DNA of 55,993 nucleotides, filler included, from Dugesia japonica (Eukaryota): NCBI GenBank assembly GCA_001938525.1. It is 4 parts of 4 records of this genome, joined end to end, with 100 filler letters (N's around TTAATTAATTAA, not from the genome) between each part and the next. Parts side by side here need not be neighbours in the genome. Positions count along the whole stretch, not along the records: positions 9,949 to 24,667 come from MQRL01582701.1; 3 more parts are not named here. The stretch is one strand, 5' to 3'. Every line of letters starts with the position of its first letter. Positions within the stretch are counted from its first letter, which is position 1. Both the position numbers and the translations under genes were made by a program. Below the pieces are notes generated by a model, which saw only the letters and a program-made list of their open reading frames with translations, was not told the DNA's origin and did no database searches. Below, piece by piece: positions 1,585-40,098 of this stretch.

Positions 1585-1639
1585 GNNNNNNNNNNNNNNN
1601 NNNNNNNNNNNNNNNNNNNNNNNNNNNNNNNNNNNNNNN

Positions 1640-2292
1640 NNNNNNNNNNNNNNGCAGTATTCTAAAAATTAGTCTACTGAAGTATACTGGATTTATTCTA
1701 ATCCAGTACGTGGAAAATTACTAATTTTTACAATTGGATTTGAATCCAATATTTCTTTAATTTCCATAAAATTATTATGTATTTGATACAAAGTTAAAGT
1801 GCAATATTTCATGATTGAGTGATTTATTCTTAAATGATAAAATTGTATACATTTGAACACAAGTATTTAATTCCATTCAATTCTAATTTTAACATTGTGT
1901 CTTTCTTTTTATAATTAAAAACCCTTTGTGATGTTCAATTTCTTGGTTTCTACTTTGGTTTCTAGTTTGGTATGAATACAAGTATATACTTCAGGATATA
2001 ATAATCTAAATTTGTGATATTCAATTTCTTCTTGTATTATTAAATTTCCAGTTTTAAGTTTCACTTCTGGAATAGGTTAAATAGTTTTATAAACCATTTT
2101 AATCTCTGATGTTTTAGATTTGACTATAGTTTTCTCTTTAATTCTCTTGTATAAATAAAAACTTAGATTATATCTATATTCAAAACATGTAAATTTATTA
2201 AGCCATTTTAATAAATTTGTTACTTCTTTTTCATCTTTCAACAGTTTGAGAATTTTAGGAAAATGATATTTAGTAAATATAGTTGTTTCCAT
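1640..2292 (-). pseudogene. Disrupted hypothetical viral ORF
   Basis: ORF 2077-2292 continues through stops and frameshifts. It is co-oriented within the viral cluster and no motif was recognised. Confidence 0.35.
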
Positions 2293-2302
2293 TTTTTTAT
2301 AC

Positions 2303-2901
2303 TTAATGTTTAATTCTTTTTTTTCCGAACATGTAATAAAAAAGTTATTCTTTCTCTATTTAAATCTATTGGTTTATACTTTTCATCTATAAAGTTTAAT
2401 TTCATTATATGTATAGTTTTGGTATTTAATTTAGAATATGTTGGATTTCCTAGTCTATCTGTCAATTGATAACCAAAAGGTACTGTGTTTAAAGGTATAG
2501 TGTATATTGGGACCGTAGGCCCTTTGTGAATGAAATCCTAAAATTGTATGGAAAAAGATTTTCCCATTAAATTTTAGCACTTTTGAAGCCGAAGGCTCCT
2601 TTGTGTAGGCCGACACCAGCTGAATAATAGCCTTACCAGTTGAATGATCATGAGTAAAAATAATATTTTCAAGTACTAAATTTTCAGCTATTTGTTTAAA
2701 TTTATATGATCCTGGTTCTAAAGATTTTTCAATTGATCATAAAAAATATTTATTCTTCTCACTTGTTATATTGAATATTATATTATAAGTTGAAAACTAA
2801 AGAAGAGCAATTTCATATTCTTGATCATCTAATTTTAATGGTTGATCAAATTTCAATTCTAAATTATTTTCTTGTCCAGCAATTAAAAATTGATGAGACA
2901 T
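2303..2901 (-). pseudogene. Minor capsid (penton-like) protein
   Basis: Manual translation: MSHQFLIAGQENNLELKFDQPLKLDDQEYEIALL*FSTYNNIFNIT...LEPGSYKF...IYTIPLNTVPFGYQLTDRLGNPTYSKLNTKTIHIMKLNFIDEKYKPIDLN. This is the typical Polinton/adintovirus penton pattern. Stop and frameshifts are present. Confidence 0.75.
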
Positions 2902-3052
2902 GATGAACTGATAGGTTCTTTTTAATGTAAATATTTTGAATAAAGAATCTTAAATAAAGAATTTTAAATAAAGGATTTAAAATTTTAAATAAACGATTTT
3001 AAATATTAGAAACGATTGTTCCTCGCTTTGCTGGGAGCTGATCACTAAAATA

Positions 3053-3965
3053 TCAAATCTTGTAACACAAATACTTTTTCTTGGTCCTTAATTTAAGATT
3101 TAATAATTCTTTACATACTAATTTAATTTCTGTTTGTAAATTATCATGTCCTGCTTTTACTCCAGAAATTAAACTTGTTAATTTTTCCCATAGACTAATA
3201 TAATTATTAGTTTCTGGAGTCTTACCGACAGCATCTGGAGTCTTACCGACAGCATCTTCAACTAAAGAGCTTTTACTATCATCACTTTTCCTGTTACGTT
3301 TTTTAAGAATTCTTTAAAAGTTGATAATAAATTACAACATTCTACATATTGCCCTTGCTTAAGAAATTTAATTCCAATATTTTTTAAAAAAATTTCTCTT
3401 GCTCGAAAACTATCAGATCCATGACCATAAATTAACATCATTACTTCTTGATTAAAAAGAATTAACTTTCCTGTAGAAGGAATATTTAAACCAGTTTCAA
3501 TATAAAAATATTTCTCTTCAGTTTCTGGAGTGTCTACGTTATTTTTTAAAACTAAATATATTCTAGTTTTTTCCCCCTTTTTATCAAAGTAAAAATTTCA
3601 TCATTAACCTTTACTTTTTCATCATGGGGTTTAATTGAATCAGATATTTGATATTTTAGTTCTAGAAAAATATCAAAATGAAAAGGTTTAAATTGATCAA
3701 GAAATACAGAATCATAATTATCTTCATCACTATTTTTGGTAACCTTGATATCTTGTAAACCATTTTCTAAATTGTTTATTGCTTCAATTGTAGGTTTTTG
3801 TTTAAAGGTTTCATCTTCAATAAAAATATTAGAATCTGTTTGTTGAGATGTTGATAAATTACTTAATTTCTCTCTAGTTTTAATTTGTTCTCGTAATATT
3901 TTTATTCTAGCACTAACCCAATCATCTGGATGGTATTCTATATCAAGCTTCAAAGAAGCTTCCAT
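3053..3965 (-). pseudogene. Conserved Polinton/MELD-type hypothetical (putative virion core) protein
   Basis: N-terminal coiled coil (ORF 3552-3965) and C-terminal WEKLTSLISGVKAGHDNLQTEIKLVCKELL. The latter resembles the 'L.LL.AS..AGN....EI..I..EL' motif seen in ORFs of such elements. Contains a short tandem duplication (tggagtcttaccgacagcatc x2) at ~3215-3257. Confidence 0.55.
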
Positions 3966-4030
3966 TTCTTAAAGATTGAACTTAAGATGTTAAATTAAAG
4001 ATTTTAACCTTAAAACAAACATTAAATAGG

Positions 4031-4225
4031 TTAAACACTCGCTTCACTCGTGTCATTCCATGGTTTTAAATATATCCCATCTCCTTGTTTTATAATCTCT
4101 AGTCCTTGTTTGAAATTCTTTGTTATTGATCTGAGGTTTGCTGTCGTTTGCACTCCAGAATTGTCTTCAACACCTTTCAAATATTTTTGTATAATATAAG
4201 AATAATTAATAAATTTGTTAAACAA
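4031..4225 (-). CDS. Small viral ORF with C-terminal GDGIYLKPW motif
   Basis: A G.G.YLKP motif is recurrent in small ORFs of adintovirus/MELD-like elements (possible protease-cleavage context; inference). Confidence 0.45.
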   Translation of the reverse strand: MFNKFINYSYIIQKYLKGVEDNSGVQTTANLRSITKNFKQGLEIIKQGDGIYLKPWNDTSEASV

Positions 4226-4462
4226 GGTTATGGTTATGATGATGATGATGTTCCCTTTTAAGAAATTGAGGAGCTATATGGTTACAATTACTGTCAAGAT
4301 ATAAAGCACCTTAGAGATAAAATTCTTCAATGTTATAATAATTATTTAAAAGAGAGGTATGAAAATACAAAATATGATATTCACTTTTGGGTTAAACATT
4401 ACCATTCTAGTTATCATGAAAATAATTATATAGATGGGATTAAGACGTTAACCTAGAATAAG

Positions 4463-5587
4463 TTATCCATCAATAATTCTTTTTCTCTATCTAGAAAAAA
4501 TAATTGTATTTCGTTTTCCAATGATAATTTGTTTCAAAATCATATCCATCCCTTGAGTGGAATATATTTGAAAATAAATGATGATAAACATTATCTTTAT
4601 CTCTTTTACCAAACTTGAAGAATATAAAACAATTGGAATTATTTCTTATTGAATTTTTATCCAAATCATAATATGTTTAAGCTATATATTACATTACAAT
4701 TATTATGTCTTACTCTTGTAAAGTAAGATTTTGAATCTGTTGATTTTTCTCATATACTACATCATCAAAGATTATCAAATTCTTCAAGTCTTTTGGTAAC
4801 TTGTCACATGGTAATATATCACTTGGTTTATTACTAATTGTTATTTGAATTCTTTCTGGATAATATATTATTGGTTCAACATACTTTTTATTTATAAACC
4901 ATGAAATAATCTCTTGTCGTAATTTAAAATCTAGAGGCACCAAATCTTGGTTTTCAAATATTAATAATAAATCTTGTTTTGATAATCCAGCTTCAAATCC
5001 ATGTTTAATTAATTGAATTTNNNNNNNNNNNNNNNNNNNNNNNNNNNNNNNNNNNNNNNNNNNNNNNNNNTATCACTTGGTTTATTACTAATTGTTATTT
5101 GAATTCTTTCTGGATAATATATTATTGGTTCAACATACTTTTTATTTATAAACCATGAAATAATCTCTTGTCGTAATTTAAAATCTAGAGGCACCAAATC
5201 TTGGTTTTCAAATATTAATAATAAATCTTGTTTTGATAATCCAGCTTCAANTCCATGTTTAATTAATTGAATTTTAAACTGATTAATTGTTGTACTAAAT
5301 ATTATTAGATTGTTGTAAACTATGAATGACCGCGAAGCTGTTGCTTGCGCTTCAGAGTCAGTCTTTCTTACAATTAATTCTTGTTTATCTGATGGGCAAA
5401 CTTTGGTTCCACAATCCAAAAGCATTCTCATTAATAAAAGATTTTTACCACAACCCGATGATCCAATAATTAATTATCTAAATTGTGGTGGAAATATCTT
5501 GTGTTTAAATTTACTTGTATTAGTTTTCCATATTAATGGAGTTGAAGGATGACCCGAAGGGTCTTGTTTAATTTTATTACTAGACAT
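4463..5587 (-). pseudogene. A32/FtsK-like genome-packaging ATPase
   Basis: ATG at 5587. PPQFR*LIIGSSGCGKNLLL (Walker A, T/S replaced by N), NLIIFDDV (Walker B), RHNNCNVIYIA*TYYDLDKNSIRNNSN (Arg-finger region). Internal stops; part of it is duplicated across the gap at 5021-5070. Confidence 0.85.
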
Positions 5588-5597
5588 TTTATTAAGA

Positions 5598-6730
5598 TTA
5601 AACTTTACACATTGATTTAAAGAGAGCTTGCTTATGTGGAGCGTTAGAGACACTCGCTCGCTTTATCATACTTGTCTTTTGAAGTTCATTATTATAAAAT
5701 CTACCTAGAAACTTTTAATTCTCCAAATCAGTAATTCCATTAGTAAAAGGTTTTGTATTGTATACTTTTGTTACTACAAATATTTCACTTGTCCATTTAG
5801 CTGTAAAACCTTTTCAAATTTATACTTGTATTTAAAAATTCTTACTAAATCTATAATTTTAATCTCCAAATTTAAAACTAATGCTGTTGTTGACAGTATT
5901 ATGATTTTTATTTATTTCTTTTATTTTATCAGGATTTTCACTAGCATATTTTGGTGTTGTTTTAATAGAACTATGAATTATATTATTATAATCATTTAAA
6001 ATTTTTTGTAATAGTTTATTATCCCATTTTTGGTTGCCAACTAATTTAAAATATTTCCACATTTTATTTTTTAGAGTTCTAATAAATCTTTCTGGAAAAA
6101 CTGATTTACCTTCATTCTCTGTATGATATAATTTAAAATTATTTTTCTTAAAGAATTAATCCATGTATTTTGATCTAATTCTTGATTCTTTGTCAAACCA
6201 AATNNNNNNNNNNNNNNNNNNNNNNNNNNNNNNNNNNNNNNNNNNNNNNNNNNTTTAATAGAACTATGAATTATATTATTATAATCATTTAAAATTTTTT
6301 GTAATAGTTTATTATCCCATTTTTGGTTGCCAACTAATTTAAAATATTTCCACATTTTATTTTTTAGAGTTCTAATAAATCTTTCTGGAAAAACTGATTT
6401 ACCTTCATTCTCTGTATGATANNNNNNNNNNNNNNNNNNNNNNNNNNNNNNNNNNNNNNNNNNNNNNNNNNNNNNNNNNNNNNNNNNNNNNNNNNNNNNN
6501 NNNNNNNNNNTATTATTTTCTTAAAATATATTTTCATAAGCTTCTCGTAAAGATTCTTGATTTTTATTTTTCATTGGCTCACAAAAACCAAATCTATAAT
6601 ATCACAACCTTAAGTATTATCTTTTTTTTTTTATTACTTTTAGAAAATGTTTTAAGTTTTCTGTATTCTTTATGAAGTTCATTTGATAATATACTCCGAG
6701 CAAAGCAAGGAGTTTGGTTCTCTTTATTTT
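5598..6730 (-). pseudogene. Retroviral-like (rve) Polinton integrase
   Basis: ILSNELHKEYRK (N-terminal), RFGFCEPMKNK..ESLREAYENIF, MWKYFKLVGNQKW..LLQKILNDYNNIIHSSIKTTP, GFTAKWTSEIFVVTKV, GRFYNNELQK. Gaps and frameshifts are present. Confidence 0.85.
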
Positions 6731-6779
6731 CATTATTATTAGTTAAAGGGAAAGTCTTCGCTTCGCTCAAACTTGCTCC

Positions 6780-7438
6780 TATTATAATATGAAGTTCAAG
6801 AGTATTAATCTTGATTGTTGCTTTATGATCCTTCTTTCCAAAGAATATTAATTCATCTTGTTTATTCCTCGTACAATCTAACTGAATAAAAACATTAAAT
6901 AGTAACCTATTATAATTTTGTAAAAACCCAAAAAGATTTCTTAGTGTGAAATAACCTTCATACTTCATACAAGAGTTATACAATTCTTTTCTTTTAGTAA
7001 AGCTTGGATCATCTACTGTTCCTGTTTTTACATTTAGGATCCATCCATAAGCCATAGTACACGGTAAACTAGAATCGCCATACATTATTAAATTTAACAT
7101 TGTAGAGGATATTCCTACATTTCCCAAATCTTCAATTTTGATGATTCAAGTTTTAATCTCATGGAATCAAATAAATTAGGAAACCAATTATTTTCCAAAC
7201 TAACATCTGGTTTGGTTGGATTAGAAAGAATAATTTCAATCTTGTAATATAGTTTTGAATTTCCAATGTCTATGGGATTGGTTGATTGGAGTGATTGAAA
7301 TGTAATTTCCCCCAACTTGTTTAAATTGTTAATTGAATCACTAGTGGGACTTATTTTCATCAAATCATTTTTAGTTTGCAAGTGTAAAAATTTAGAATTT
7401 AAATCCAATTTCATCTTCTATAGTAATATTTTGCTCAT
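6780..7438 (-). pseudogene. Major capsid protein (double jelly-roll type), N-terminal part only
   Basis: ISPTSDSINNLNKLGEITF...DIGNSKLYYKI...LENNWFPNLFDSMRLKL...VGISSTMLNLIMY...GW...SFTKRK...LRNLFGFLQNYNRLL..V.IQL..TRN. Frameshifted, and runs into integrase sequence. Confidence 0.75.
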
Positions 7439-7479
7439 GTTATCTTTTTAACTTTTATTTGTCCTACATCACTTGTTCC

Positions 7480-7999
7480 AGCATAAACTCTACTTACCTT
7501 GTTTTTAAATTTTGAAGGTACTTTTCAAATCAATCTTTTTTCAGTTATTTCATTTCGTTTTTCTACATCTTTCATGACATTTATACAATCCATTGAAGTT
7601 AGTAAAACATCTTTCTTTGGTATTAGACTACAATTTAAAGCAGGTAATTCTACTAGTTGTGGTTTCTTCTCAAGATTATACTTATCCAATAACTCGTGTT
7701 CAACTCTTTCTTTCTGAAAAGTTTCTTCTAATTCTTTTATATATTCAAAATTCTTTTTACTTTCAATACTTAAAATATTAATCAAAATACCCTTGCAATC
7801 ACTTTCACAAAATTTACTAACCATTATACTTATTAAACTTGTCATTATCTTCATGTGTACTTATTTGTGTATGCATATTCTTCAACGTTGTAACATACAT
7901 CTTTGCTGTTTTACAAGTTAAATCATGTTGACAAAAATTACTAATCTCTTCCATACTAAACTCTCCCAAAGTTGCAAATTTATTTACTGTATTATACAA
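7480..7999 (-). pseudogene. Disrupted hypothetical viral ORF
   Basis: Overlapping ORFs 7817-7999 and 7525-7854 appear to be one frameshifted gene. No motif recognised. Confidence 0.4.
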
Positions 8000-8158
8000 A
8001 GTATTTAAACTAAGAATTTCTTTACCTTTATTTGCTTTTGCAATTTTCTATAGTAATAATTCGGATAAACCGAAAACGAAAAACTGAATATCGAAAATCG
8101 AACTGTAATCTGAAAACTGATATCTGAAAACGGAACACGGAAACTTTTAATTATAAAA

Positions 8159-8870: not shown

Positions 8871-9848
8871 TAAAATTAAGGTTAAAGGAGATCCAATAGC
8901 ACATGACTCTAGATGACAACCGATGCATTTAGAAAATAAAATTGAAGATATTATTAAAGAGTTAGCAAAGATTGGTGTAATCAGCAGGTGTAATATTCCT
9001 TGGAATTCTCCATTAGTGATTGTGGGTAAAAAGGACGACTCAATAAGAATGTGTGTGGATTACAGGCAAGTAAATTTGAGGACAGNNNNNNNNNNNNNNN
9101 NNNNNNNNNNNNNNNNNNNNNNNNNNNNNNNNNNNAAGGAGATCCAATAGCACATGACTCTAGATGACAACCGATGCATTTAGAAAATAAAATTGAAGAT
9201 ATTATTAAATAGTTAGCAAAGATTGGTGTAATCAGCAGGTGTAATATTCCTTGGAATTCTCCATTAGTGATTGTGGGTAAAAATGACGACTCAATAAGAA
9301 TGTGTGTGGATTACAGGCAAGTAAATTTGAGGACNNNNNNNNNNNNNNNNNNNNNNNNNNNNNNNNNNNNNNNNNNNNNNNNNNNNNNNNNNNNNNNNNN
9401 NNNNNNNNNNNNNNNNNNNNNNNNNNNNNNNNNNNNNNNNNNNNNNNNNNNNNNNNNNNNNNNNNNNNNNNNNNNNNNNNNNNNNNNNNNNNNNNNNNNN
9501 NNNNNNNNNNNNNNNNNNGATTAGCTACAGCACCGGCCAATTTTCCAAGGTTAATGTACGAGTAATTGGAGGGATTAATTTTCAAAGAAGTTATTGTATA
9601 TCTGGACGATATTCTGGTGTAAGTAAAATCTTTGGAGGATCACAACTAAATGTTAGAAACAGTCTTTTACAGAATCAGAGACTCGAGGTTACGAATAAAC
9701 ATGGAGAATTTTAGGTTTTATCAGAAAGAAGTGTTATTCTTATGACATACAGTTAGTGCAACTGTTATACGCACTAACAAAGTTAGGATTCAAGAGATTA
9801 AGAATGCTATAGTTCCAGAATGTTCTTCAAAACTCCGTTTGTTTCTCG
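8871..9848 (+). pseudogene. Ty3/Gypsy reverse transcriptase fragment
   Basis: PWNSPLVIVGKKDDSIRMCVDYRQVN, LATAPANFPRLM, IVYLDDILV, FL*HTV. Segment duplicated across a gap. Confidence 0.9.
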
Positions 9849-9904: not shown

Positions 9905-10501
9905 NNNNNNNNNNNNNNNNNNNNNNNNNNNNNNNNNNNNNNNNNNNNATTCATGTAATTACTTGGTATAAATATAAAACCACAATAAACGATTTATTAA
10001 TGGTCACCCGAGAAACCCAACTAGTAGTAGACCTGAGAGTGTATTGACAAAAGATGGACAATTTAAGCGATTTAGCCACATACGGACAACTTAGTTTATG
10101 GGACAGAGCGGAATGGTGGAAAGAAAAAACCTGTACGAAGCTGAAGTAAGAACCACGTCAACTATATCGGACTAATATATTCGGGTAAGGCTCCTCAGTA
10201 AAAAGAGAGTAATAAAGAAAGTAGACATGATAACACTCAATATGCTAACTATGAGGCAGTATTTACGCCAATAAAAAAGTTTATATGGCCTAAATCGCTC
10301 AAGACATAACCACGCTATAGGTAAAATAAAAGCTTTTTGGAATTTAAAAAATCAATAATTTTGTAGAATATTTATTAAAATTTCTTAGATTATTTGTTTG
10401 AATATTGTGAATTGTGCTTTATCATTTTTCATTTTAATAAAAGACTTGTAATAATCAAAAAACAATTTATGAAGACTTGTGAGAATTTAAATTCAACTAA
10501 T

Positions 10502-10980
10502 ATGGCGACTAACGCATCACTCGATTTGCTAAAAGAAGCCCTGAACCCTGTAATTTTTAAATCGGTTGATGATGTTGAAAAATTCTTTTTGAAGACAACG
10601 AAGTATTTTGATATAACGGGAACAAAGAAAGGTCAAAAGAGTTGGTTTCTAGTTACATTCATAAATAGAGAACTGCGTGAAATCTTTGAAAATGAAGACG
10701 AATCATAGGGATATGAAGAAAGATTCAGAAAGGCTTTCTTTAGACCATCAACAATGATTAAAGATACGGAGGAAGCTCTAAATTTTTAAAGAAATGGAGA
10801 GCATATAAATATCTATAAGAAGAAGATTGAAGGATTGGTAGAAAAGTTAATGGCTCATAAATGTATAAAGAACATGAGAAGCTTTTTGTGAATATGCAAT
10901 TACTTCAGACTGTTTATCAATAATTGCACAAAGAAAGCTAGAAACTTGGAAGAGCTACGTGGAAAATATCTTTCAGCAAA
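10502..10980 (+). pseudogene. Ty3/Gypsy gag N-terminus fused by deletion to an RT/RNase H fragment
   Basis: MATNASLDLLKEALNP..FK..DDVEKFF...KYFDITG (paralog at 20027), then MRSFL*ICNYFRLFINNCTKKARNLEEL (RT thumb LRSFLG..NYYRRFI). Confidence 0.75.
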
Positions 10981-11042
10981 AACTGATTTACACTAATTTT
11001 CTGTATGGTATAAATTAATATACCATACTAGNNAAAGTTTGA

Positions 11043-12190
11043 TTGATAATTGAAGACCCAGATATCGAATTGTACTGCATGAGTCAAGGTCGAGAAAAGA
11101 TAAAACAAATACCAATAGTAAAAAAAAATAGCCACAATTTTAGATTACCAGAAAATTTTATACGAAGAATGGGATGTTATAGCGTGATGAAAGTTTTCGG
11201 CAAAACATATCGAAGCGATCATAAGACAGCATTAACATTACTCAAATAGCCTAAGCGCCTACATAGGTTAATCAGAGATATGGCCAAATCATGACTCTAT
11301 TTCTTTAGAACCAATGTCGAACTAGATCAAGTGAAATGCATATACTGCCAAGGAAATTTATATATATGGAGACAAAATAACAAACCAGAAAGAGACTAAA
11401 AACTATCATTCCCCACTTGTTCATTCCTGCAAAATTTGGATGTAAATAATCAATTAATCCTAACCAAAGGCAAAAAACAAGAAATTGAAAATATGACCTT
11501 GGAACCCAAGAGACTTATATTGTAAAATAATAAAAAACCTAGCAGAAGTAGTACTACTAGACGATTTGGAATAGAATATTGACGCTCGAGAAGAAACCTT
11601 GAAGGAAGCACCAGAAATGCTAGAAAAAGCAATGGAAGGATTATATATCACCAAAAAGAAAGACATGAAAGTCATTAAATGCACAACATGCAAAAAAAAA
11701 TGGAGAGATACTTTTTAGAGAGAAATTACCGCAAAACCTATTTCATCAACCAAAATGCTCAAGATTAAACCACTCTCAAAATGACCTACCTGAAACAGCA
11801 CGTAGAGTAGAGTGGAATATGTCAAAAATAGAATAGAATTAACAGTTGATTTTCGAGCAGACAAATTATCTAAAATACTCAAATTGAGAAAAGAAACCAC
11901 AAACGTGTTGATCTTTAGAACAGTAGCAAACAAAAGAAAAAGAAGTAGTAACACCATATGAAGCGTGCCAACAATCACTCAGAATTACACTCAAAAAAGT
12001 GCATTACCAACAGGAATGGATTTTGATGGACAGTGTCTGTGCAAATTGTCTTGATGAGTTTATTCAAGTCATATTCCTTCCCTGCTGACATTTTAAAACA
12101 TGTTATAATTGTGCTCTCATTTTAAACGAGTGTCCTATATGTAGACATGTAATCAAACGAAGTGTGTTGGGAATGAAATTCAAACAATGA
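11043..12190 (+). pseudogene. Inhibitor of apoptosis (BIR-BIR-RING) pseudogene
   Basis: BIR1: LTLLK*PKRLHRLIRDMAKS*LYFF...DQVKCIYCQGNLYIW...PERD*KLSFPTCSFL (~11200-11430). Degenerate BIR2: AREETLKEAP...AMEGLYIT...VIKCTTC...HQPKC (~11580-11760). RING: CANCLDEFIQVIFLPC*HFKTCYNCALILNECPICR (12038-12145). Confidence 0.85.
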
Positions 12191-12290
12191 GGTATGTAAG
12201 AAATGCGTAAATAATTGTCTATAGTGTTTTATACTCTAATTGTCTCCTTATTGTAATGCTCTAAATTAATAACTCTACCTAATTTAGAAA

Positions 12291-13075
12291 ATGAATGACA
12301 AAAATTTGATTACCCACCTTCGTACTAAAATACAAACTCTACAAATACAAAATAAATCTCTCATAATCGTTCCTGAAACCCTAAAAAAATGAAATTAGAT
12401 TCAAAACAAAACGCTCTCCTCAACCTTCAACTCTAAATTCATATCTGCAGGCTGGAAACCAAAATAGAAAAAATTAGTCATGAGTTAGAAATCAAGCAAC
12501 GATCTTGCAACGCACACAAAAATACTGATCGAAAAATCTCTCGACAAAAATCTGGCGAAAATTATTGCTATAACGCAAGCTCGTAAATGGAAAACAAAAT
12601 TCAAAAATGTCGAACCTGAAAGACAAGAACTTGAAGCCAAGTTAACAGTCAAACAAGAAAATAACCAATCTTTGCTACTAGAATTATTCAACACTCAATT
12701 TGAAAGAAACAGACTGGAAACCGAAAATCAGCTACTAATTAGTCTAGCTAACCAGGAAAGCGTTCCAAGGACATCAACACAGCACAAGTCAAGGTAAAGC
12801 TTTACAAAACTCGATGTAACGAGTATCGTCAGGAAGCAGAGGCTTCACACACTCATGAGTGAGTTTGGAAAAGGCAACTCAAGACCTTCACCGACTGCAT
12901 CCCGGAGCTACACGAGCGTGAAAGAAATCTTGTAACCGAATTGCTAGATCTGCGTAAAAAGATATCTTTAGACCTGCTCGCAATAAATAAAGCGATTCAT
13001 AAGCATCGCAATAAGAAGGTCGAAGAGAAACTTGCCATCTGTTGTCATAATAACAAAATTAATAGTGCCACTTAA
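12291..13075 (+). pseudogene. Accessory coiled-coil protein (cassette A)
   Basis: Frameshifted heptad-rich ORF: ...RQELEAKLTVKQENNQSLLLELFNTQFERNRLETENQLL.../AQVKVKLYKTRCNEYRQEAEASHTHE*VWKRQL. Homolog at ~17780-18060. Confidence 0.55.
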
Positions 13076-13172
13076 TTTTGAATTAGTTTATTTTTTTTGT
13101 ACGTCATCGGATTATTTGCTGAAATATAACTATTTATAAGATCTCTGTTAATTGCAATTTTCTTTTAGTGAC

Positions 13173-13524
13173 ATGAGTACGCCTCCCGAATAGCCTGAAG
13201 AAATTCCAACGTTTGCTTCAAAAGTCCATTCTTGAACGCCACTATTCAAAACGTTTTCAGCGAACCCTACTCTGTCATTTCTCGCAGAAGAATAGCCTGA
13301 TTAAAAATCTCGAAACCATAAGTAAAAAACAACTAGAAATTGTCAGTCGCATGAACCTGCAACTCCTCAATAAAATCAATTTCTTAAAACAGTACATTGC
13401 TAATCGGTCTTAACGCTTCAAATTCGAGACATGGTCAAGTTGGACTGATTTCGACGATGATACCGCGTTCGACTTTTCAGATGACGCGCCCGACGAATGG
13501 CTTGATCCAGGAGTTTCCAATTAA
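13173..13524 (+). pseudogene. Small accessory protein with acidic tail (cassette A)
   Basis: TATA-like tatttataag at 13131, ...LQLLNKINFLKQYIAN...WTDFDDDTAFDFSDDAPDEW, then AATAAA at ~13534. Homolog at ~18240-18420. Confidence 0.5.
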
Positions 13525-13587
13525 ATATAGAAAAATAAATCTTACTTAGTATACGAGTTGTCTTCGTTTTTAATCTATTATTAATTA

Positions 13588-13746
13588 AAGAGAATTATGA
13601 ACCCGAATTAAAGGTGTACGAGTGTAAACTCCAAGTAAGGGTTTGGAGTTAACAGATCTGCACCAAAAGCCTTAAAACGGGATCCACTAAGGGCTGTCTT
13701 TTTTCACCAGAAAAGTTTTCTATCCGCAACTCAGGTGGAAACTCAA
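13588..13746 (+). repeat. Putative PPT and start of 3' LTR (element A)
   Basis: Purine run aaagagaa, then sequence similar to 18500-18570, including the hairpin AACTCCAA-N8-TTGGAGTT. Confidence 0.45.
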
Positions 13747-14438
13747 TCTTGAATCAACCGATCTGGCGTCCCTTCATAATCTTTACAATTTATAAATTCA
13801 GAAAATAATTTCGGCGTAACTCATTAGTGCTGTATTGATTATTCAATTCCTTTTTCAGTGTTTCACAATTTAGAACCTTCGACCCGTTGACCAAATCAAT
13901 CTTTTTATGCGGCTTAGTTGCAGTTTCAAGATTTTTAAATGCACACATTCTGACTATAGTTTCTATAAAAATTAAATCTGAGTTCATTGCAATTGACTCC
14001 TTTACTTTCCCGTAGCACATTCTTTTTGAAATTATATACTTCACGACCATGTCTTCTGTTTGCTTCACCGACAAAACTTCTCTTATCAACTTCGTCAGTC
14101 TAATAGCAAAATTTTCATACCTTTCATTTGATTGTTGATTAACTTGGCTTATATCTTCGATCTTTTGCAAAAATGTTTTTGACTTGATATACTTTGAACT
14201 GTACCAATCTGAAAGAATCTTTATTCTTTCCTTAATGGCAATAGATCAAATGCTGCACATTAATTAAAGGAATTTATAGTTACAAATTCTTCAATTGATT
14301 TTTTGTATCTTCTTCCTTGTAGCCAAAAACTTTTTTATTATTGGATAAATTGATTCTTGAACATTCTTTGGCAATGATTCTACAATTTTCATCCGCTGAT
14401 GACTCTTTGTGAGAACTGTGATTTCCGCGTGGTTACCA
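13747..14438 (-). pseudogene. Ty3/Gypsy PBS plus gag fragment (inverted insertion)
   Basis: PBS-like TGGTAACCAC at 14438. Gag motif ISQVNQQSNERYENFAIRLTKL (Q...E....F..RL..L). Confidence 0.7.
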
Positions 14439-15769
14439 GTTACAATACCAACTTGACACATTAAATAAAAAAATGCTTTTTAAAAGTTTATTATAAAACC
14501 ATTTCTGAATATTTAAACAATATTATCTTGTTGTTACTATTGTTTAAATTACACAGGTCTTTAATGTTTTTGATATGTTCATTGAATTTCTCATCTAAAA
14601 ATAGGATCTACTCATTTTTTATAGTATAATTAAATTTGGATGTCCATTTTGTATTTTAATTGTTTTTTGTTCCAGTCGTAATTTTGGTTTGACACTGATA
14701 TAAAATTTTCTTTGATTATTTTTTTTGAATAATGTTCTAAATGAAATATGTTTTAAGTATAAATTTAATCCGTGATAAATAATAAAAAATTCCCTGATCT
14801 GATAATCGAATAATCCCAAAGTTCTGTTTTGTAAAATTATTAGCTTACTTAAATTTGTCAATCTTCATTAAAAGTTCTTATATACAGGGAGTATATATTT
14901 ATATTTCTTTTCATTTCATAAAGTCGAATAAACAAAACATCGAAATTTCTTGAAATTCGACCAAAAATAATTAAAATCTGTTACTGAGAATCAATCTAAT
15001 ACTTTCATATTTTTTCTTTGATTACAATTGATTTAATAAATTTTTATTAATATTTCAATTTTTTCTTGTAATTTGTATTTTCAAATTTTAACAATAAATA
15101 ATTTAAATGCATTACCAAACATTTTTATAAATTGAAATTTCAAAGAATTTTCCATGGAAATAGTTAAGAAATTGTATTTAAAATGAATTTTGCAGAATAA
15201 TTATATCAAAATAATTGAGCAATTAGTTTCTTAAGATTTTGAACAAAAGAAATTTCAACAATTACTTTTTGGACTAAATTAAATGAAATCTTAGGGAAAG
15301 TAAATTTTATTATTATTTCCCGGTTAAAATTTTTGGTTAGTTAAATATTTAAATCGATTTCATATCTGAATGGACTTTTTCTAATTTTCACTGTATTATG
15401 TAAATATAGAAGTAATTTTTAATAAACAGCTTTAAAAGTTATTTCAAAATATATTTTACTACATGTTTAGACATATTATTAGAGATGATCCGATATAATT
15501 TCTTAATCCATTTAATAGTTCTTATAAAAATTCTGATGTTTAATCAATTATACAATCTCTTCAACCATTAAAATTAATTTTCAAACACTCAATAAAGACC
15601 TAGAAAGATCTGTTTCAACATAGAGACTTCAATTTAAAAAAGTAAATAAAAAATGCTAGAATATAAATATTGTAGATATTTCTAAAGAAATTAAAAGATT
15701 GATTTGGCCAGCGGCCCGAAGGTTCTAAATTGTGAATATTACTTGTAAGAACACTGACAAAGGAATTGA

Positions 15770-16720
15770 ATAATTGGTTGAGCACAAATGAGTTACGTCG
15801 AAATTATTTTCTGAATTTATAAATTGTAAGGATTATGAAGGGACTCCAGATCGGTTGATTCAAGATCTGGAAATTCTAAAGTTGGAGAAAAACAACAAAT
15901 ACTTGGGGATAATAATGAACATAGTAAACGTGTTTTTACCAGATAAGTGAAACGTGTGACGTATACATCTGGTAAAGCATAAGATAATGACTAGGATTGA
16001 ACCGATCAACATAGAAAATATCATCACCAACTAGACTTGGATGAACGAGCAATCAGAATATAATTTCATTTTGAAATATAGGAAAAGTAACACTATTCCA
16101 ATATTGATGGTATGAAATGACATCCAATTATTGTTCACAATGTCAGGTTGAACTTAAAAATGCCAAGTCCAAATCATCTAAGGTAAAATTATTTTAATGT
16201 TATGAAAGTTTTCAGTGGTGGACAATTACATAAAAGAATTTAAAGAAGATAAATTAATTAAGGGAATGAAAATTTATTTGATGGACAAAATCGTTAAGTT
16301 ATCAGAAACGGCAAAATCTTCCCAGTATATTAAATATTTAAATAAGTTTGTAATTGTAGACCATATGCTGCTAATAGAGTCGGATGATGAGCGAAAAGCT
16401 TTGGTTGCAAAAAGATGCGTAACTAATTTTATAAACAAATTCATAAAGACTTGCAAAGTTGGAATAGAATAAATATTGTAGACGGAGAAACCAATAGCTT
16501 CTTCCTTTAAGTTAAATATATTAAATTAGATAAATTATTGAGTTAAATGGTGAGAGATAGTCTTTTTGACACTTCTAATTATTGCGAAACTCATCCTCTT
16601 TATAGTGATAAATTGAATTCTGTCGTAAGGAAATTTATCGCTGAAAATAAGGCAAATAAATATATTGGACTTTGAGGTTTTTGTGATATGTGTTTTAATA
16701 ATATTGTTGGAGTTTAACAC
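15770..16720 (+). pseudogene. Ty3/Gypsy gag tail and pol (RNase H/integrase linker) fragments (element B)
   Basis: 15788-15866 is an inverted copy of 13747-13822. W..EQSEYNFILKYRK resembles the RNase H C-terminal motif. ORF 16215-16472 resembles the RNase H-integrase linker. Confidence 0.55.
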
Positions 16721-17208
16721 TAACTATAAGAAGGGACCCTCAACTTGATAAATTAATAAAACTAGAAAGAAAAAAATGATGTAATGATGACAGCAATTAA
16801 TAATAGCTTTCAAATTAATTGGAAGAATAACTTTAATGAACCAAATAAGAAACAATTTCGAGTAAAACCAGAAATAATAATAAATAACATAAAAAATAAT
16901 TAAGACCCAAAAATAAGACTCGTGATTAAGTTTAATCAAGAAAAATTCGGAATGGTAATTTAAATAATTAAAATTATTAGAAACGAAAGCGAAAAATTAT
17001 TTTAAAAAAATTAATTAATAGGTACAAAACAAAAAGGTCAATGACATAAAAATCTGAAAAGGCGAATAATTTTTCACAGAATGGTCAAAACCTGGATAGC
17101 TCTTGGTAAAAGCAGCCAATTTTTACCAAAATTAAGAAGGTACTATTTTCAGAAGAGTCAAAAAGATTAGGCCAATGAGAGGCCATGAAAAACGCCAAGA
17201 ACAAAGGC

Positions 17209-18420
17209 ATGAAAATCATGTGGCACTTCTTACCAAAGTCACCTTAATTCGTCTTTAACCTCAATTGTTAGCTATGGTAGACATTACCCAATGTCTCATT
17301 AAACGGCCCTGATGACCACAACAATTTCAGACAAAAATTATTTTATATTCTTCTAGACTATGCCCAACCATACTCCTTTTTTCTAGTGTCTGAATATGGA
17401 TTGCGACTGGTCCTCAACGTCACAGTGCGAATGGTGTTCCGCTATTTGAAGAACCCCTATAACCGCAATGTGGGTATTTTGGTAGACCGTTCTAACCTAC
17501 CTCCTTTTTGCACGAACAACGTCAAGTAGATAAGGCCGAGCGTTGGCTGTATCAATATTTGCTAGACCGGGGTCAGATTACGAAGAGTATAGCATCAACC
17601 CCAGGTACTCTGACGTCGTCATCTGATGATCATTCTGAAAATTATTAAAAATAAATGTTGTGTCTAGTATAAGTTTTATACACCTGTTTTGTTTTCTTTT
17701 TGTTAATCACTAAATTACGTCTGTGTAGCTGGATTAGTTTGACTACAGACTCACTTTTTGTTTTCAATTTTTAGTGAATATTCCCCTATCACGATCATTG
17801 GCTTCAGCTTAAAACTACGCGTGGATAGCGATGAGGACGAAATGTCCTGAGACGTCTACCGTCTCGCCAAACGGAGATGGGAAGCGGATGTAGCGGCTGA
17901 GAAAGCAAAAATTAAATTTTACAAAATCTGTTGCCGCGATTATTTAGTAGAGACAGAACTCTCTTATTCGCCGGAGACAGTTTGAAAGGCTCAGTTTGAG
18001 TCCTCAGCCGAGACGATTCGAATGCTCCTTGAGCAAGAGATTATTTAATGATGTTCTGAACTTGCCCAAACGGATTTGATTAGAACCCCTGAAAATTTTC
18101 AAGACCAGACAGACTCGAAATAAACTATGCATTCTCAATATCTTTGTAAATATAATGTTTTTGATCAATTGTTTTATTGTTCTCCTCATAACTCAAATAA
18201 AAATTGTTTAACAATTTTTTAACAATTGTTTTATCATTTTGTTTAGAGCCACAAAATTGCTAACAAAACCGTGAACAAATTTTTCAATGAAGTTTATGTT
18301 CTCAACCAGTACATTGCGGACTTAAGCGCCGGGCTTAGTCGTGAAAACTTAGAACAATAAAGACGATGAGGCCGCAATCGATTTGACGGATGATGTGCAA
18401 GTAAACTGTTATTATTAAGA
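17209..18420 (+). pseudogene. Accessory ORF cassette B (Cys-rich ORF, coiled-coil homolog, acidic-tail homolog)
   Basis: CLNMDCDWSSTSQCEWCS; RRWEADVAAEKAKIKFYKICCRDYLVETELSYSPETV*KAQF; NKFFNEVYVLNQYIAD...DDEAAIDLTDD. AATAAA at ~17650 and ~18438. Confidence 0.55.
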
Positions 18421-18491
18421 ATCTTTCGTTGTCGTGTAAATAAATGTTGCTCTGCATCTGGCTATTTTTTTATCTTATTCACTATGTTATT

Positions 18492-18578
18492 AAGGGGAAT
18501 GTTGAAACCAATGGGAGTCTGTACTCCAACTACGAGTTGAGAGTCAACGGCTCTATTCCGAAAACCTAACTGGTGACA
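18492..18578 (+). repeat. PPT, short or internally deleted LTR, and PBS
   Basis: AAGGGGAA (PPT) followed directly by TG at 18500, hairpin ACTCCAACT-acg-AGTTGAGAGT, then TGGTGAC (tRNA-Trp-like PBS) at 18571 preceding a gag. Confidence 0.6.
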
Positions 18579-18593
18579 TAAGGTAAATTCTTC

Positions 18594-19269
18594 ATGGGGT
18601 CCACTGATATACCTCTTAGACAAAATCTAACTGCCACCAAAATTGCTGGAATTTGAGAAATACCAGATTATGATGAATTTGATAGAGAAAAAACTCTCTT
18701 ATCAATATTTTTGAAAGGGGTTAATAATCGTTTGGGAGCCAGAGCCACGAAAATTATGAAACTAAACACTCTGAGAAAAGCTTTTAATTTTTTGAATAAG
18801 AAAAATAAAACTCGACATCATGATAAATTGCGAATTATTAGCAATGGTGTTAACACAGAAAAATAGCAAGAAATAGAAATCTTAAAACGAAGAATAATTG
18901 ATCTTGAAAATCATATAAAGTATTTTGAAAGAAACGATGAAACAGATTATCTAAAGTATGCAGTTCAAAAAATCAAACACGAATTAAAATTATATAATTG
19001 CAATGGAAAAGGTCATATTGCTCAAAATTGTAACAAACAATTGTTATGCAAGAACTGTAACAAATACGGACGTATATCTCGAATTTGTCAAATATATCAA
19101 TTATCCAGACGATATTAAGTTGGATGAGTATATTCTAGGATTAAGACACAAATTTCTAATTCACAAAGGACAAAGAACAATGATATCAGATACAAAAAGC
19201 GAACCCGCGGTAAACAAAACAATAATCAAAGGCAAAGTAGAACAAAAGGTACGCAGACATTTCACATAA
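18594..19269 (+). pseudogene. Ty3/Gypsy gag with two zinc knuckles
   Basis: LLSIFLKGVNN; YNCNGKGHIAQNC and CKNCNKYGRISRIC (degenerate CCHC). Confidence 0.8.
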
Positions 19270-19385
19270 AAACTTTTCACATAAGGAATTTTCAAATAAA
19301 ATTTTTCAAATATAGAATTTTCACATAAAAACTTTTCAAATAAAAACTTTTCACATAAAGACTTTTCACATAAAGACTTTTCACG
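19258..19385 (+). repeat. ~15-bp tandem repeat (AAAACTTTTCACATA-like), about 8-9 copies
   Basis: Directly visible imperfect tandem units at the 3' end of the gag. Confidence 0.85.
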
Positions 19386-19949
19386 TCAAATTTAGAAATA
19401 TTACAAGCAATATATTATAATATAATAGATCAAATAAATAAAAGATCAGAAGAACAAATCAAGCAATATTAAGAATAAAAAATCAAATTATTATATCAGA
19501 TAGTAACATCAGCATGGTTAATGTTTAATTTGATTAAATAAGTTAAAGATTTATGAAATACATATAAGATAATGTAATCACAAAATATACAAGTTAATTA
19601 TTTAAACTTGAATAAAATATTTTACAGTATATCTTGATGAAAATTCCATTAGAATGTTAATCAATATTATTCAAATTTCATCTTTTGAAACAAGAAGTTG
19701 TTTTAATTGAAATAGATTTGGCGCTACATTTATCATATGATTTATATTAAACCAAAATTCTTTATATAAACTTTATTTTTAGAGATTTTAAATGTATACA
19801 GTTACAAAGACAACTAAGAATAAATATATGCTTAGAGATGGTGAGTTTAAACTCTAAAATGTTAACTAGAGTTTAACATTTAACTAGAGTTTAACCATTA
19901 CTGGTTTGCACGAAATTTGGAATATGCTATAGTAGGTTACTAACGAATT

Positions 19950-20440
19950 TGGTTTCTGGCAGCAATGATATTATAGTATATAGGAGTAAGCCACACTGTC
20001 TTTGTGAGATTTTAAATTTAAGTAATATGGCGACCAACTCATCATTAGATTTGTTAAAAGAAGCTGTGAACCTTGGAAATTTCAAATTTGGCGATACCGA
20101 AAAAATCTATTTTGAAGACAACGAAATATTTTGATACAACTGGAACAAAGAAAGGCCAAATGAGTTTGTTTGCAGTTGCTTTCATAGATAAAGAACTGTG
20201 TGAAATCTTTGAAAATGAAGATAAATGATTAGGATTTGAAGAAAAATTCAGAAAGGCTATCTTTTGGCCATCAATAATGATTAAATTTATGGAGGAAGCT
20301 CTAAATAATCGAAGGAATGGAAAGCAAATAAATACCTATAAGAAGAAAGAGGCATTAACAAAGCACCGACATTGAGCTTTCTCGATATCAAATAGATGTT
20401 TGTACTAGATACAGATGCAAGTTTTGATGCAATCGGAGCT
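19950..20440 (+). pseudogene. Ty3/Gypsy PBS-like site, gag N-terminus and RNase H fragment
   Basis: TGGTTTCTGGCAGC at 19950, MATNSSLDLLKEAVN (paralog of 10502), LTKAPTLSF..FVLDTDASFDAIGA. Confidence 0.8.
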
Positions 20441-20559
20441 ACATTCTATAACGATTTGGATGTTTTGGCCGGTATAACCAAACAAACATCAATGCCTGAA
20501 ACAGTTAATGGGATACAAAATTCTTTAAGATCAATTATTCTTAATGCTAGTTCCTGTTG

Positions 20560-20800
20560 CATAATAAACTCGCCATATAATACTACATATATTGGTACAC
20601 CATTTCTTAAATATGATTCTGGTGTAAAAGATATTCAAAGAGTTTTATTATTTTATTCTTATAAATATATAAGTAGAAGTCCTCATTTATATTCTGATGG
20701 GACATTTAATAAAGTTTCAAGTATTTTTTCCAGTTATATACAATACATGGAGAAGTTTAAGTGCATAACTTTTCTTTTATATATGTCTGTGTTTTTGTAA
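20560..20800 (+). pseudogene. MULE/Mutator transposase fragment
   Basis: FLKYDSG...RVLLF...LYSDGTFNKV...F(S)QLYTIHG motif set. Confidence 0.75.
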
Positions 20801-21219
20801 ATCGAAGCATAAATTTATAGATTTAAGTTTAATTATTTATTACACTAATTAGATTTAGTAAAATTACAAATTTCAAAGAATAATAATAATAACAATAATA
20901 ACAGTTTAATTACTCACGTAACACCACACTTTCAAAAACAACCGTCCAAATCACAATGCCAATCAGCTAAGGATTTAAATAACGGAATAAGCAACACGAT
21001 AATAATTATTATTTAACTTTAAAGATTACTCCAAGCTATCTATTTTAAATTCACACTCAAATTATTCTGATTTACCACGCATCTTTATTAATCAAACACT
21101 GCCATTTAATAAATTAAATCAGTATGTATTTACTAAAATTAAACATATACTGAAATTTAATTTCAGTATATGCTTTATCTCTTTCTCACAGATAGGATTA
21201 TGAACAGACATTCAGCCGA

Positions 21220-21906
21220 TATGAATAAAAATGCGAAAAATACTGTAATAAATATAATAACAGAATTTAAAGTTATATTTAGTAAAGATAATAATGATAT
21301 CGAACATTTTCAATTTTAAAATACGAAATAGATGTCATTGGTCCTAAACATATTGCTCAACCATTAAGAAGAGCTTCCCTTCATCTAGAAAGTAAAATAG
21401 ACAAAATCATCAAAGAGCTTGAACAAAACGTAATCATACGGGNGAGTTCAAGTATGTGGTCTTCTATTGTGGTTGTTNAAAAGAAATCTGGAGACATTAG
21501 GTTATGTATAGACTATAGAAAATTAAACTCAGTTACTAACAGACCTATGCATTCTTTTCCAGATAACCAACTGTTGTTCAATTTACTTGAGAGATCAAGA
21601 TTCTTTAGTGCACTTGACTTTTCTTAAAATATAGAAATAAATGACAAAGACAGAGGAAAAACCGCTTTTGCGACAGGAAAAAGTCAATATAAATTAAACT
21701 GTATGCCTTTTGGACTGCGTGGAGCACCAGAAACGTTTCAAAGATTAATGCATCAAGTTTTCAGCGAAGAAAACTTTGATAAATGTTTTATATATCTCGA
21801 TGATATTTTGATTTTCGGGAAAAGAATAGAGGAATTCAATGAAAGACTGAAAACGGTATTAGAAAAGATACAGCAGTCAGGAGTTAAGTTATCTCCCAAG
21901 AAATGA
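21220..21906 (+). pseudogene. Ty3/Gypsy reverse transcriptase fragment
   Basis: KKSGDIRLCIDYRKLN, FFSALD, KTAFAT, MPFGLRGAPETFQRLM, IYLDDILIF, GVKLSPKK. Confidence 0.92.
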
Positions 21907-26757: not shown

Positions 26758-27279
26758 AGCAAACCTCATTGAGATTATGAACACAAACTAAAGGAATGCT
26801 GACATGCGCTCTTAGTAGGGGTTATGAGTTGCCGACTCCATTCCGAAAAATATACAACGCCTATTATTCTAATGCACATAAATTGAGCTCCGTAAGTGGA
26901 AACCTCACAAAAATCTAAACATAAAAGATACTGTAGTTAAAAAAAGGAATTGAGACGATTATATTAAACATGAACATCCAGTAAATCAAGACAGGCTATC
27001 ACAAAGTCCCATTGGACCTGGGAAAAAGAAAACAAAATATATATAGTCATTCAATTTAAATCAATATTATCTAAAATTTTTCTTTGCACAACACACTTTT
27101 ATATAAAAGCTTTTCCACGACACATCATTAAAATAATTTTTAAAAAACGTAGTTTTCTTTGAAAAAAATTGAAAAAACTATACAGTTCATTAATTTATTA
27201 TAAAGTGAATTTTGGTATTTCAAAATTTACTATTTCAAACAAATTCCATTTAACCTACTAAAATAATAAATTAATGTGA

Positions 27280-38173: not shown

Positions 38174-40098
38174 AAATTAAATTTATTAAATTAATTTAAA
38201 ATTAGTTGTTTATTAATAAAGTTTTATAATTAAACAAGTAAATATTATTTAAACAAATAATTGAAGTGATTATGTGACGTAAAAATAATTTTTGAATGAA
38301 CAGTAATAACTAACTGTTCTTTTCATTATCAGAGCAATATGCAGTTAAATTATTTTATTTATATCTATTAAAAAAATCGTTGAGACGATTTAGAAAATTT
38401 GTCTAAGCAGATGTAATTTAGAGCTATTTGTTAATTTATAAATCACCGAAAATTGAAAAGTAATAGAAACACGTTTAGTATGAAATTTATTTCTTAAATT
38501 GCACTAATATTTAAATTTATATATATTTTTAATATTTTTTAATATATTTTTTAATATATATTTTTTAAAAATATTTTAATAATGTTAAAATCATAGGATT
38601 TTAGAAAGAAAAAGAGAATATTGAATTTAGGAAACTTTTCATCATTTAAAACTGCAAAGGTCTTAGCACTATTCAGTATCGGAAATGAGTGTAACCATTA
38701 GTTTCAGAATACAAATGAGGAAGGCAAAAAAGTTTAATTTAGAAAGAAAAATTTTAACAAACATACGTGCAATCAGGATAATTTGAACCAATGTGGTATA
38801 AAAACATAAAAGTATTATTGAAAAATTATTTCTAATGGAGTAAAAACACCAAAAGTTCCTTTAAAAGGACTAAAATAAAAAAGTGAGCTCATCAAAAAAG
38901 CACAATTAAATGGTCATTTGCAAAGCTATAAAAAAATATGATGATACAAAATACAGTTTAAATAAACTTGAGCAATGGTATATCTGTTAAGCTGGAACAC
39001 CAAATTTCGAGTGCTAGAATTCCCAAATTTTTCGAAATAACTGAGTGACTCCGAAGAGTGTGAGTCGGTGTGCAAGAAACTGACTTTCTAGAAAAGAAGG
39101 TGAAGAGAGGCACACACTGAACTATTAAAAGGTGACCTTCAACCATAAGCCGCCATTTGAAAATGTACTATTTTAGTTGCCTGGATATTGGACCGCGCCG
39201 TTTCCTCTTTCGATTGGAACAATAAAACCAAGCTGCACGAGAAAGATTCAACACTTTTTCATCAATAAATTTGTTTATTTAAACGATTTGTTAAAAATTG
39301 AGTTACTTCAAAAAATTATTTTATCAGCGATCTATTGTGAAGCTATTTTATCTGCTATCCAAATTTTAATAAAAGAAACAATCTCAATTATTAATTCCTA
39401 TACAAAAAATCATTGTGTTCACATTAATCCAGAATGAACGTACAACAAAAGTTAATTTAAATTTATTTAAAAATATTATAATTTACAGTCATAAACTTTC
39501 AAGTTCTGAGTGCCCCAATGACGATCGTGTAATCGGAAAATGTCCATAACTGAGAAGAAAATGACATTCGAAATCACAGCGTGCTAAGCCTGAACATCCT
39601 TCCAACAAATGAGCTAGTCAAAAATATTATAACCAAAACTGAAAAGCAAAATGAAAATAAAAATATGTTAGGGTTTTATCTAGGTGAGTTGAAAAGTCTT
39701 AAGTAACTGACCTAATAAAACCCCTTGAAGAATTCAATCTGCGACCCCAAAAATCCAGATCTTTGGAATGGAGTCGTTGACTTGAAACCCGAGTACAGAC
39801 TCGCATTCCTTTAGTTTCGGTTCTTATTTCATAATACTCGCTTGATTTTTAAACTACTTAATCTCTATTGGTCAATGTTGTCAGTTTAACAAAAGAATTT
39901 AACTAAAATAAAATCATATTAAATAAAAGAAATCTGGCTATAGAAAGATATATTATGATTAATTTCATACATTACACATAAAATTAAAATTACATCATAA
40001 AACTAAACACTAACGTGGTCTGGAATCTCGATCTGAAGCAAGCACATAGGGATCNNNNNNNNNNNNNNNNNNNNNNNNNNNNNNNNNNNNNNNNNNNN

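Follow-up and report, generated by a model that had tools for sequence, protein, structure and literature searches.

What are the two blocks of small open reading frames (ORFs) that lie close together on one strand of the Dugesia japonica genome (GCA_001938525.1), and did they once form part of mobile elements? The window (the whole stretch of DNA analysed, 55,993 nucleotides (nt) with filler, in four joined parts) is AT-rich, with 18-38% GC per kb, and crowded with transposon debris; both blocks lie in the part taken from record MQRL01582701.1 (9,949 to 24,667). At 12291..18578 an initial annotation had described two diverged elements sharing a cassette of unknown accessory genes upstream of a long terminal repeat (LTR). 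Two relics, A (about 11.1-13.7 kb) and B (about 17.1-18.6 kb), indeed share a cassette in the same order, both on the + strand: a T-rich spacer, a helical ORF (ORF2), a small acidic ORF (ORF3), AATAAA, a purine tract and a terminus starting with TG. With a probability of roughly 0.6, we read A and B as degraded 3' ends left by two members of a single LTR-retroelement clade that diverged long ago and carried 3' accessory modules that were once expressed. The annotated span includes ~3.3 kb of other transposon debris between the relics (13.7-17.0 kb), and the module starts further upstream, with a gene encoding a BIR and a RING domain. Every ORF of both cassettes is broken by stops and frameshifts, and only 1.5-2.6 kb can be assigned to each relic.

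The homology of the two cassettes was assessed against shuffled sequences. The coiled-coil and small-ORF peptides quoted in the initial annotation are present where it had placed them, and ORF2 of A (12752-13072) matched that of B (17779-18117) as protein with a score of 85 (z 13.6; 0/1000 shuffles). Moreover, an unbiased 3x3 search over the nine + strand frame pairs gave a best score of 88, the null reaching no more than 68 (0/100), and 9 of 22 residues were identical in a further ORF2 block (A 12926-12991, B 18038-18103), the match continuing past the frame change of B. The DNA comparison of ORF2, on the other hand, was weak (z 1.6, 13/200 shuffles), while for ORF3 the DNA match (z 8.4, 0/200 shuffles) was clearer than that of the main protein block (13/1000 shuffles); the proposal that the similarity is clearer in protein than in DNA thus holds for ORF2 and not for ORF3. 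A DNA alignment running from ORF3 through AATAAA, the purine tract and ~95 nt of the terminus (A 13367-13692, B 18284-18583) reached z 20 (0/200), and blastn of the ORF3-to-terminus stretch of A against that of B gave E 2e-9. Spacer 1 is homologous as well (A 12209-12268, B 17649-17717; z 5.0, 0/200). The shared order of two diverged elements therefore passed the shuffling test, whereas the first-slot ORFs of A and B showed no significant DNA match (16/60 shuffles) and the N-terminal 169 residues of A ORF2 had no match in B (513/1000 shuffles).

Codon positions were compared in four ungapped blocks totalling 110 codons. Identity between A and B was 62/110, 76/110 and 35/110 at codon positions 1, 2 and 3 respectively (positions 1 and 2 versus 3, Fisher p 9e-8), and pN was 0.36 against a pS of 0.86, for a pN/pS of 0.42 overall (0.41 for ORF2, 0.47 for ORF3); these values are to be read with the blocks having been picked from protein alignments, which inflates identity at positions 1 and 2, and with pS being saturated. 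When the substitutions were redealt without regard to codons, the observed BLOSUM score was reached in 0/5000 trials (13/5000 for ORF3 alone), and the correct frame pairing scored 179 versus 33-89 for the other five pairings. The codon-position identities and the pN/pS ratio thus show that ORF2 and ORF3 were once under purifying selection at the protein level, in keeping with the conserved multi-gene module that had been proposed; a dN/dS of ~1 was not seen.

The first slot of A (11079..12190, +, about 370 codons) holds a broken IAP-type gene, with a BIR domain and a C-terminal RING, which the initial annotation had missed. Its stop-broken BIR (11274..11432) scored 31.3 bits in Pfam (E 2.9e-7; cut-off 22.9) and matched NAIP, cIAP1 and XIAP among PDB sequences, 58 of which were found at E<=0.1. 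The RING (12032..12160, one internal stop) matched Pfam zf-C3HC4_3 (E 9.7e-11, 45.8 bits), and its best ten PDB matches were all RINGs of IAPs, among them cIAP1 (E 1.8e-11), cIAP2 (4.6e-11) and XIAP (2.1e-9). The RING closes the ORF, as in IAPs: cIAP1/2 and XIAP likewise have a BIR toward the N-terminus and a RING at the extreme C-terminus, and the baculoviral Op-IAP is like the A gene in this placement. Unlike these cellular and baculoviral IAPs, the A gene shows one detected BIR and a middle of about 200 residues assigned to no family, lies inside a retroelement relic, and carries many lesions (at least nine in-frame stops and two frame changes). Its frame is neither intact nor expressed, RNA depth over 11214-12161 being 0-0.16 in three runs. 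Thus the description of the accessory genes as unknown stands for ORF2, ORF3 and the first ORF of B, for which the searches made found no homologue, but not for the first gene of A.

Reads and contigs from four of the 24 listed runs, the RNA runs being read to ~25%, 25% and 6%, were mapped to 9950-19400 at 85% likeness. For DNA run X1, five listed contigs spanned most of the cassettes with 0 other letters; the stops and frame changes are therefore genomic and not assembly errors, with the proviso that the assembly may itself have been built from X1. Contig depth, which serves as a contrast and not as a copy number (the locus itself contributing ~10), was 27-48 over ORF2 and ORF3 of A, 19-23 over most of the B ORFs and 69-328 over the IAP-type gene. 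It rose to 30,000-41,000 over the gag upstream of A, 3,000-6,000 over the gag downstream of B and 500-720 over a polymerase-like piece upstream of B. Since these depths are far above those of the cassettes, the neighbours probably belong to other families; close copies of the cassettes are few. Among the joints in related copies (15 of 48 listed), single X1 contigs joined ORF2 to spacer 2 (12846-13140) and ORF3 to the terminus in both A (13401-13600) and B (18398-18521), and also joined A-like with B-like termini (13616-18512, 13639-18560). RNA depth over the cassette ORFs was 0-0.26 in three runs, against 10-27 over the flanking gag pieces in run X10; with all ORFs broken and almost no RNA, present activity is not borne out.

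Does the IAP-type gene belong to the cassette at all? The ORF2-ORF3 block might be real and the IAP-type gene a chance neighbour, for instance a processed pseudogene of the host or a fragment from some other element. We consider this unlikely, although i) the slot in B is without an IAP, ii) the bin over the RING had a depth of 328 versus 27-30 over ORF2, iii) the region is full of nested fragments and iv) IAP-like sequences occur in other repeats, for example the WSSV-like repeats of shrimp described in PMC3124438. However, the stop of the IAP-type gene lies 100 nt ahead of the ORF2 ATG on the same strand, the intervening spacer is homologous to spacer 1 of B (0/200), which also lies directly 3' of an ORF, and one X1 contig covers 11628-12841, from within the IAP-type gene into ORF2, without a difference.

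Downstream of the IAP-type gene, A continues on the + strand with the T-rich spacer 1 (12191..12290), the all-helical, coiled-coil-like ORF2 (12291..13075), broken by stops and frame changes, spacer 2 (13076..13172) and the broken ORF3 (13173..13524), a short helix with an acidic tail. A polyadenylation-signal hexamer (13534..13539) then stands 64 nt ahead of the terminus, followed by a purine-rich tract like a polypurine tract (PPT; 13583..13597) and the TG-starting, hairpin-forming terminus (13598..13695), past which lies a gag fragment on the opposite strand. B, also on the + strand, opens with a decayed ORF of unassigned kind and about 190 codons (17081..17648), then spacer 1 (17650..17774), which has AATAAA and a T/GT-rich stretch, and a broken ORF2 (17775..18145) that matches only the C-terminal part of A ORF2. 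Spacer 2 (18146..18246), with a GT start, leads to a broken ORF3 (18247..18418) whose N-terminus is shorter than in A, a polyadenylation-signal hexamer (18439..18444) 61 nt ahead of the terminus, a PPT-like purine-rich tract (18490..18499) and the terminus (18500..18609); a zinc-knuckle gag fragment of high contig depth comes after it.

The spacers are about 100-125 nt long and T-rich, and an acceptor-like AG falls either 1-4 nt before an ATG (ending at 12287, 13168 and 17079) or at the start of a frame (17774, 18246); the AG at 12287, 3 nt ahead of the ORF2 ATG, fails a strict acceptor filter. AATAAA is found 3' of ORF3 in both relics (13534, 18439) and 3' of the first ORF and ORF2 in B (17650, 18196), but no canonical copy follows the first ORF or ORF2 of A. 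The annotation of AATAAA after each ORF is therefore correct for ORF3 in A and B and, for the two ORFs before it, only in B. Nothing points to the internal promoters that had been suggested; acceptor-like sites stand at the ORF starts instead.

Such sites could also mark ordinary introns, with ORF2 and ORF3 as exons of one protein and no separate cistrons. Spacer 2 of B could be read this way, running from GT (18146) to AG (18246) with both ends in phase 0 with the flanking frames, and GT-donor-like hexamers occur in the A spacers too. Yet the phase agreement has a one-in-three probability by chance, the stop of A ORF2 precedes the first donor-like site, A ORF3 has its own ATG 4 nt past the acceptor, and the RING ends where the C-terminus of an IAP usually lies; introns would also leave the AATAAA within the B spacers unexplained. 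We regard this explanation as quite improbable and retain that of separate accessory genes.

The element class was approached through the termini. A profile built from the A and B termini and run with nhmmer over the 56-kb window recovered two further members, C (26774..26849, +; E 6.8e-6) and D (39718..39830, -; E 2.8e-10), making four in the window against none in 10 shuffled windows; the related PPT/LTR-like sequences noted earlier in A and B thus belong to a family of four termini. Three of the six pairwise comparisons were reached in 0/100 shuffles, one in 1 and one in 4, and B versus C was not significant. A candidate fifth terminus noticed by eye near 19.84 kb was not recovered by the profile and was rejected, and cassette remnants upstream of C and D were not accepted, their scores being marginal (1, 1, 8 and 75 of 100 shuffles). 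Stem-loops lie at the starts of the termini (13608-13672, 18506-18566, 26788-26850 and 39758-39815). In a stem common to all four, 37 of 40 cells were paired and 3 of 10 pairs had changed on both sides, a result as high in 14/500 shuffles and suggestive only of a shared stem with compensatory changes. Folded singly, A, B and D gave z of -4.4, -2.0 and -2.9 respectively, and Rfam had no match at E<=1 in 9950-21000, which covers the stem-loops of A and B. By eye, D may be part of a whole LTR of about 400 nt (39435-39831, -) with TGAA...TTCA ends and AATAAA near its end; no target-site duplication was found for this putative LTR.

Purine tracts 1-3 nt ahead of the TG at 13598 and 18500 fit a polypurine tract preceding a TG-starting 3' LTR, and from this we infer that the terminus is the start of a 3' LTR and that the elements were LTR retrotransposons. 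That earlier class assignment is thus matched by the purine tract and TG terminus but not by any linked pol or 5' LTR. There is no 5' copy of the terminus upstream of A or B, both relics being cut by gaps or other insertions and lacking their 5' ends. The two reverse transcriptase remnants (21280-21900, + and about 8880-9750, +; RVT_1 E 2e-19 and 3e-9) are unlinked to the cassettes, with no tie to A or B at about 9.5-9.75 kb or 21.5-21.9 kb.

The relics might instead come from another class of element (a Polinton, another DNA element or an endogenous virus), with the purine tract and hairpin terminus being no LTR. A decayed Polinton-like remnant does occupy about 1200-8000 (-), with a double jelly-roll capsid match (E 2e-4) and pieces that we take, by motif only, to be protease-like, ATPase-like and integrase-like; a 54-nt piece at 10968-11021 matches 6086-6139, and no pol is linked to either cassette. 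Just upstream of B, on the same contig, a fragment at 16547-16675 (+) resembles, by a motif, the C-terminus of a protein-primed DNA polymerase B. (This piece is multi-copy, has RNA reads from relatives and found no match in phages.) On the other side, Polinton-like bins had depths of 500-720 versus about 20 for the B ORFs, no terminal inverted repeat pairs with the termini, and no relative was found in viral contigs. Membership in such a class is thus very improbable, and an LTR element remains our preferred reading.

Several points weigh against that reading, in addition to the bias of the codon blocks: i) neither A nor B can be tied to a pol, a 5' LTR, a primer-binding site or a target-site duplication; ii) an NN gap at 11032-11033 parts A from the upstream gag, which probably belongs to another family, its contig depth being several-hundred-fold higher; iii) integrase-like remnants upstream of B were seen by eye only and gained no support in searches; iv) only two of the sequences supply the three compensatory changes in the stem, and terminus C gave no fold by itself (z -0.03); v) sites passing the strict acceptor filter are no denser than the background (6 in about 4.4 kb versus 1.15-1.34 per kb), AATAAA turns up roughly 3 times per kb, and the acceptors themselves served to position two of the B ORF starts, so that finding an acceptor there is circular; vi) among the 15 of 48 joints listed, none joins the IAP-type gene and ORF2 in a second copy; and vii) subgenomic transcripts, which the initial annotation had recommended looking for, were sought in three RNA runs, and the mapping results listed contain no splice joint or transcript end.

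What the conserved proteins are was addressed by modelling and database searches. AlphaFold2 modelled ORF2 as long helices (pLDDT 89-91, pTM 0.44-0.46), showing little beyond the helix, and Foldseek found no match among viral models for its helical C-terminal model, long single helices being uninformative in such a search. A word-indexed search restricted to longer proteins returned 136 candidates for ORF2, none at E<=0.01, but it also missed a clear BIR piece, so that it is insensitive here and little weight falls on its blanks. A HMMER search of 1.84 billion representatives gave two matches (E 2e-4 and 1e-3), both repeat proteins and rejected. ORF2 had no relative in viral or metagenome contigs, ORF3 and the first ORF of B had no homologue in searches against Pfam and the window only, and the latter had no Pfam match. 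Apart from the domains of the IAP-type gene, the cassette ORFs matched no Pfam family, viral fusion proteins included. A Kyte-Doolittle mean of about 1.6 is the usual threshold for a membrane segment; the highest 19-residue mean among the pieces tested, which are decayed, was 1.14, so that no membrane-like segment was present in them. Given the lack of a Pfam match and this maximum hydropathy, the ORFs are not typical envelope (env) proteins, as had been claimed.

Complex retroviruses (walleye dermal sarcoma virus, foamy viruses) carry several 3' accessory genes, including a host-like regulator, and express them from subgenomic RNAs. The cassette differs from these in having no env, an invertebrate-type context and an AATAAA before the purine tract. 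Closer likenesses are found in two invertebrate systems. In bdelloid rotifers, according to PMC5408684, the LTR elements Vesta, Juno and TelKA exchange non-env ORF3s between lineages, and spliced ORF3 messages are typical for LTR retrotransposons. These rotifer ORF3s are likewise family-specific genes between pol and the 3' LTR, with coiled-coil types among those listed there; but each element described there has one ORF3 (GDSL, DEDDy, TM, CC or env), whereas here three consecutive ORFs are set apart by spacers, and the cassette has no GDSL, DEDDy or TM signal.

The second system is Burro of planarians. Burro1/GYPSM1 of Schmidtea mediterranea is an LTR-type invertebrate element for which PMC6431247 lists BIR, Smc, RING-related and other motifs and accessory ORFs, alongside a polyprotein of 4,873 aa and a copy number in the thousands; its B-IAP, which combines RING and BIR, reportedly protects stem cells (Lee et al. 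2026, as cited in PMC13465017). PMC8532177 and PMC11410931 contribute only expression and genome context here. By description, A resembles Burro1 in its BIR, RING, coiled-coil motif and accessory ORFs, and differs in that its IAP-type gene leads a row of three small ORFs next to the 3' terminus and is broken, low in depth and devoid of RNA. The relics could accordingly be old small relatives or derivatives of Burro-type giants, the IAP-type gene belonging to the B-IAP lineage and the coiled-coil ORF corresponding to the 'Smc' motif, which we hold to be rather unlikely. Burro is present in thousands of copies while ORF2 and ORF3 reached a depth of 19-48 against ~10 for the locus (a rough measure), and almost no RNA mapped at 85% likeness. 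Moreover, Pfam searches found no ankyrin, MATH or BCL2 domain, and none of the MATH, BCL2, env-like and ankyrin motifs of Burro (>30 kb, with a giant ORF1) is seen in the 1.5-2.6 kb assignable per relic. In the literature searched, Burro was the only close case and no three-ORF 3' cassette with an IAP slot was described; Repbase and the Burro supplements, which lay outside the search, may hold such families. By analogy, the cassette of our LTR relics would have acted like the captured IAP of Burro1 and the captured ORF3s of rotifers.

How such a cassette might have worked can be sketched. Between pol and the 3' LTR the elements would have carried an accessory block of slot 1 (an IAP-type gene in A, a different gene in B), the helical ORF2 and the small acidic ORF3. 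Each gene would have been read from a subgenomic mRNA, spliced to the acceptor just upstream and polyadenylated at an internal site; with the final AATAAA before the purine tract, an mRNA of this kind could not have served as a genome. The IAP may have been captured from the host and, on the analogy of Burro1, may have held off apoptosis in cells expressing the element or functioned there as a ubiquitin ligase. ORF2, perhaps a scaffold, and ORF3, perhaps an acidic regulator, could have been soluble intracellular partners, a guess made from their shape.

Most Gypsy-type elements have, to our knowledge, at most one extra gene. A bolder and rather improbable proposal is that A and B represent an undescribed animal LTR clade with an operon-like three-gene cassette, a swappable slot 1, an IAP captured independently of Burro1, two conserved novel proteins, trans-splicing and a U3 hairpin. 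In that variant the ~100-nt spacers, with poly(A) signal and acceptor, would let a host spliced leader cut the transcript into single-gene mRNAs, and the covarying hairpin would mark the start of U3. Whichever variant is taken, a selected three-gene block with an exchangeable cell-death inhibitor would mean that manipulation of apoptosis by retroelements arose more than once, beside Burro1; it would add two protein families without known relatives and leave to be explained how a full-length genomic RNA gets past internal poly(A) signals. What the present copies can offer is limited, both being dead, silent in the runs examined and without a linked pol.

Other features of the window were recorded as well. 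Inverted gag-like fragments at 13746-13908 and 15690-15866 are 84% identical, and the minus-strand member of the pair lies in an ORF with a weak Gag_p24_C match. The starts of two gag-like ORFs (10477-10824 and 20002-20347, +) are 83% identical and belong to a short abundant family (contig depth 30,000-41,000); they had no Pfam match, and run X10 contained RNA reads from them. A 15-nt unit repeated seven times in tandem (19257-19393) lies downstream of the gag fragment with the zinc knuckle. An identical 12-nt palindrome flanked by N runs occurs near 9893, 24712 and 40099 and looks like an assembly scaffolding mark. A decayed mariner (42569-43449) has 36-nt terminal inverted repeats and a Transposase_1 match. 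Finally, a complete diaphanous-type formin (51190-54174, -) runs for 994 unbroken codons with GBD, FH3, a proline-rich stretch and FH2, and is either an intronless host gene or a retrogene.

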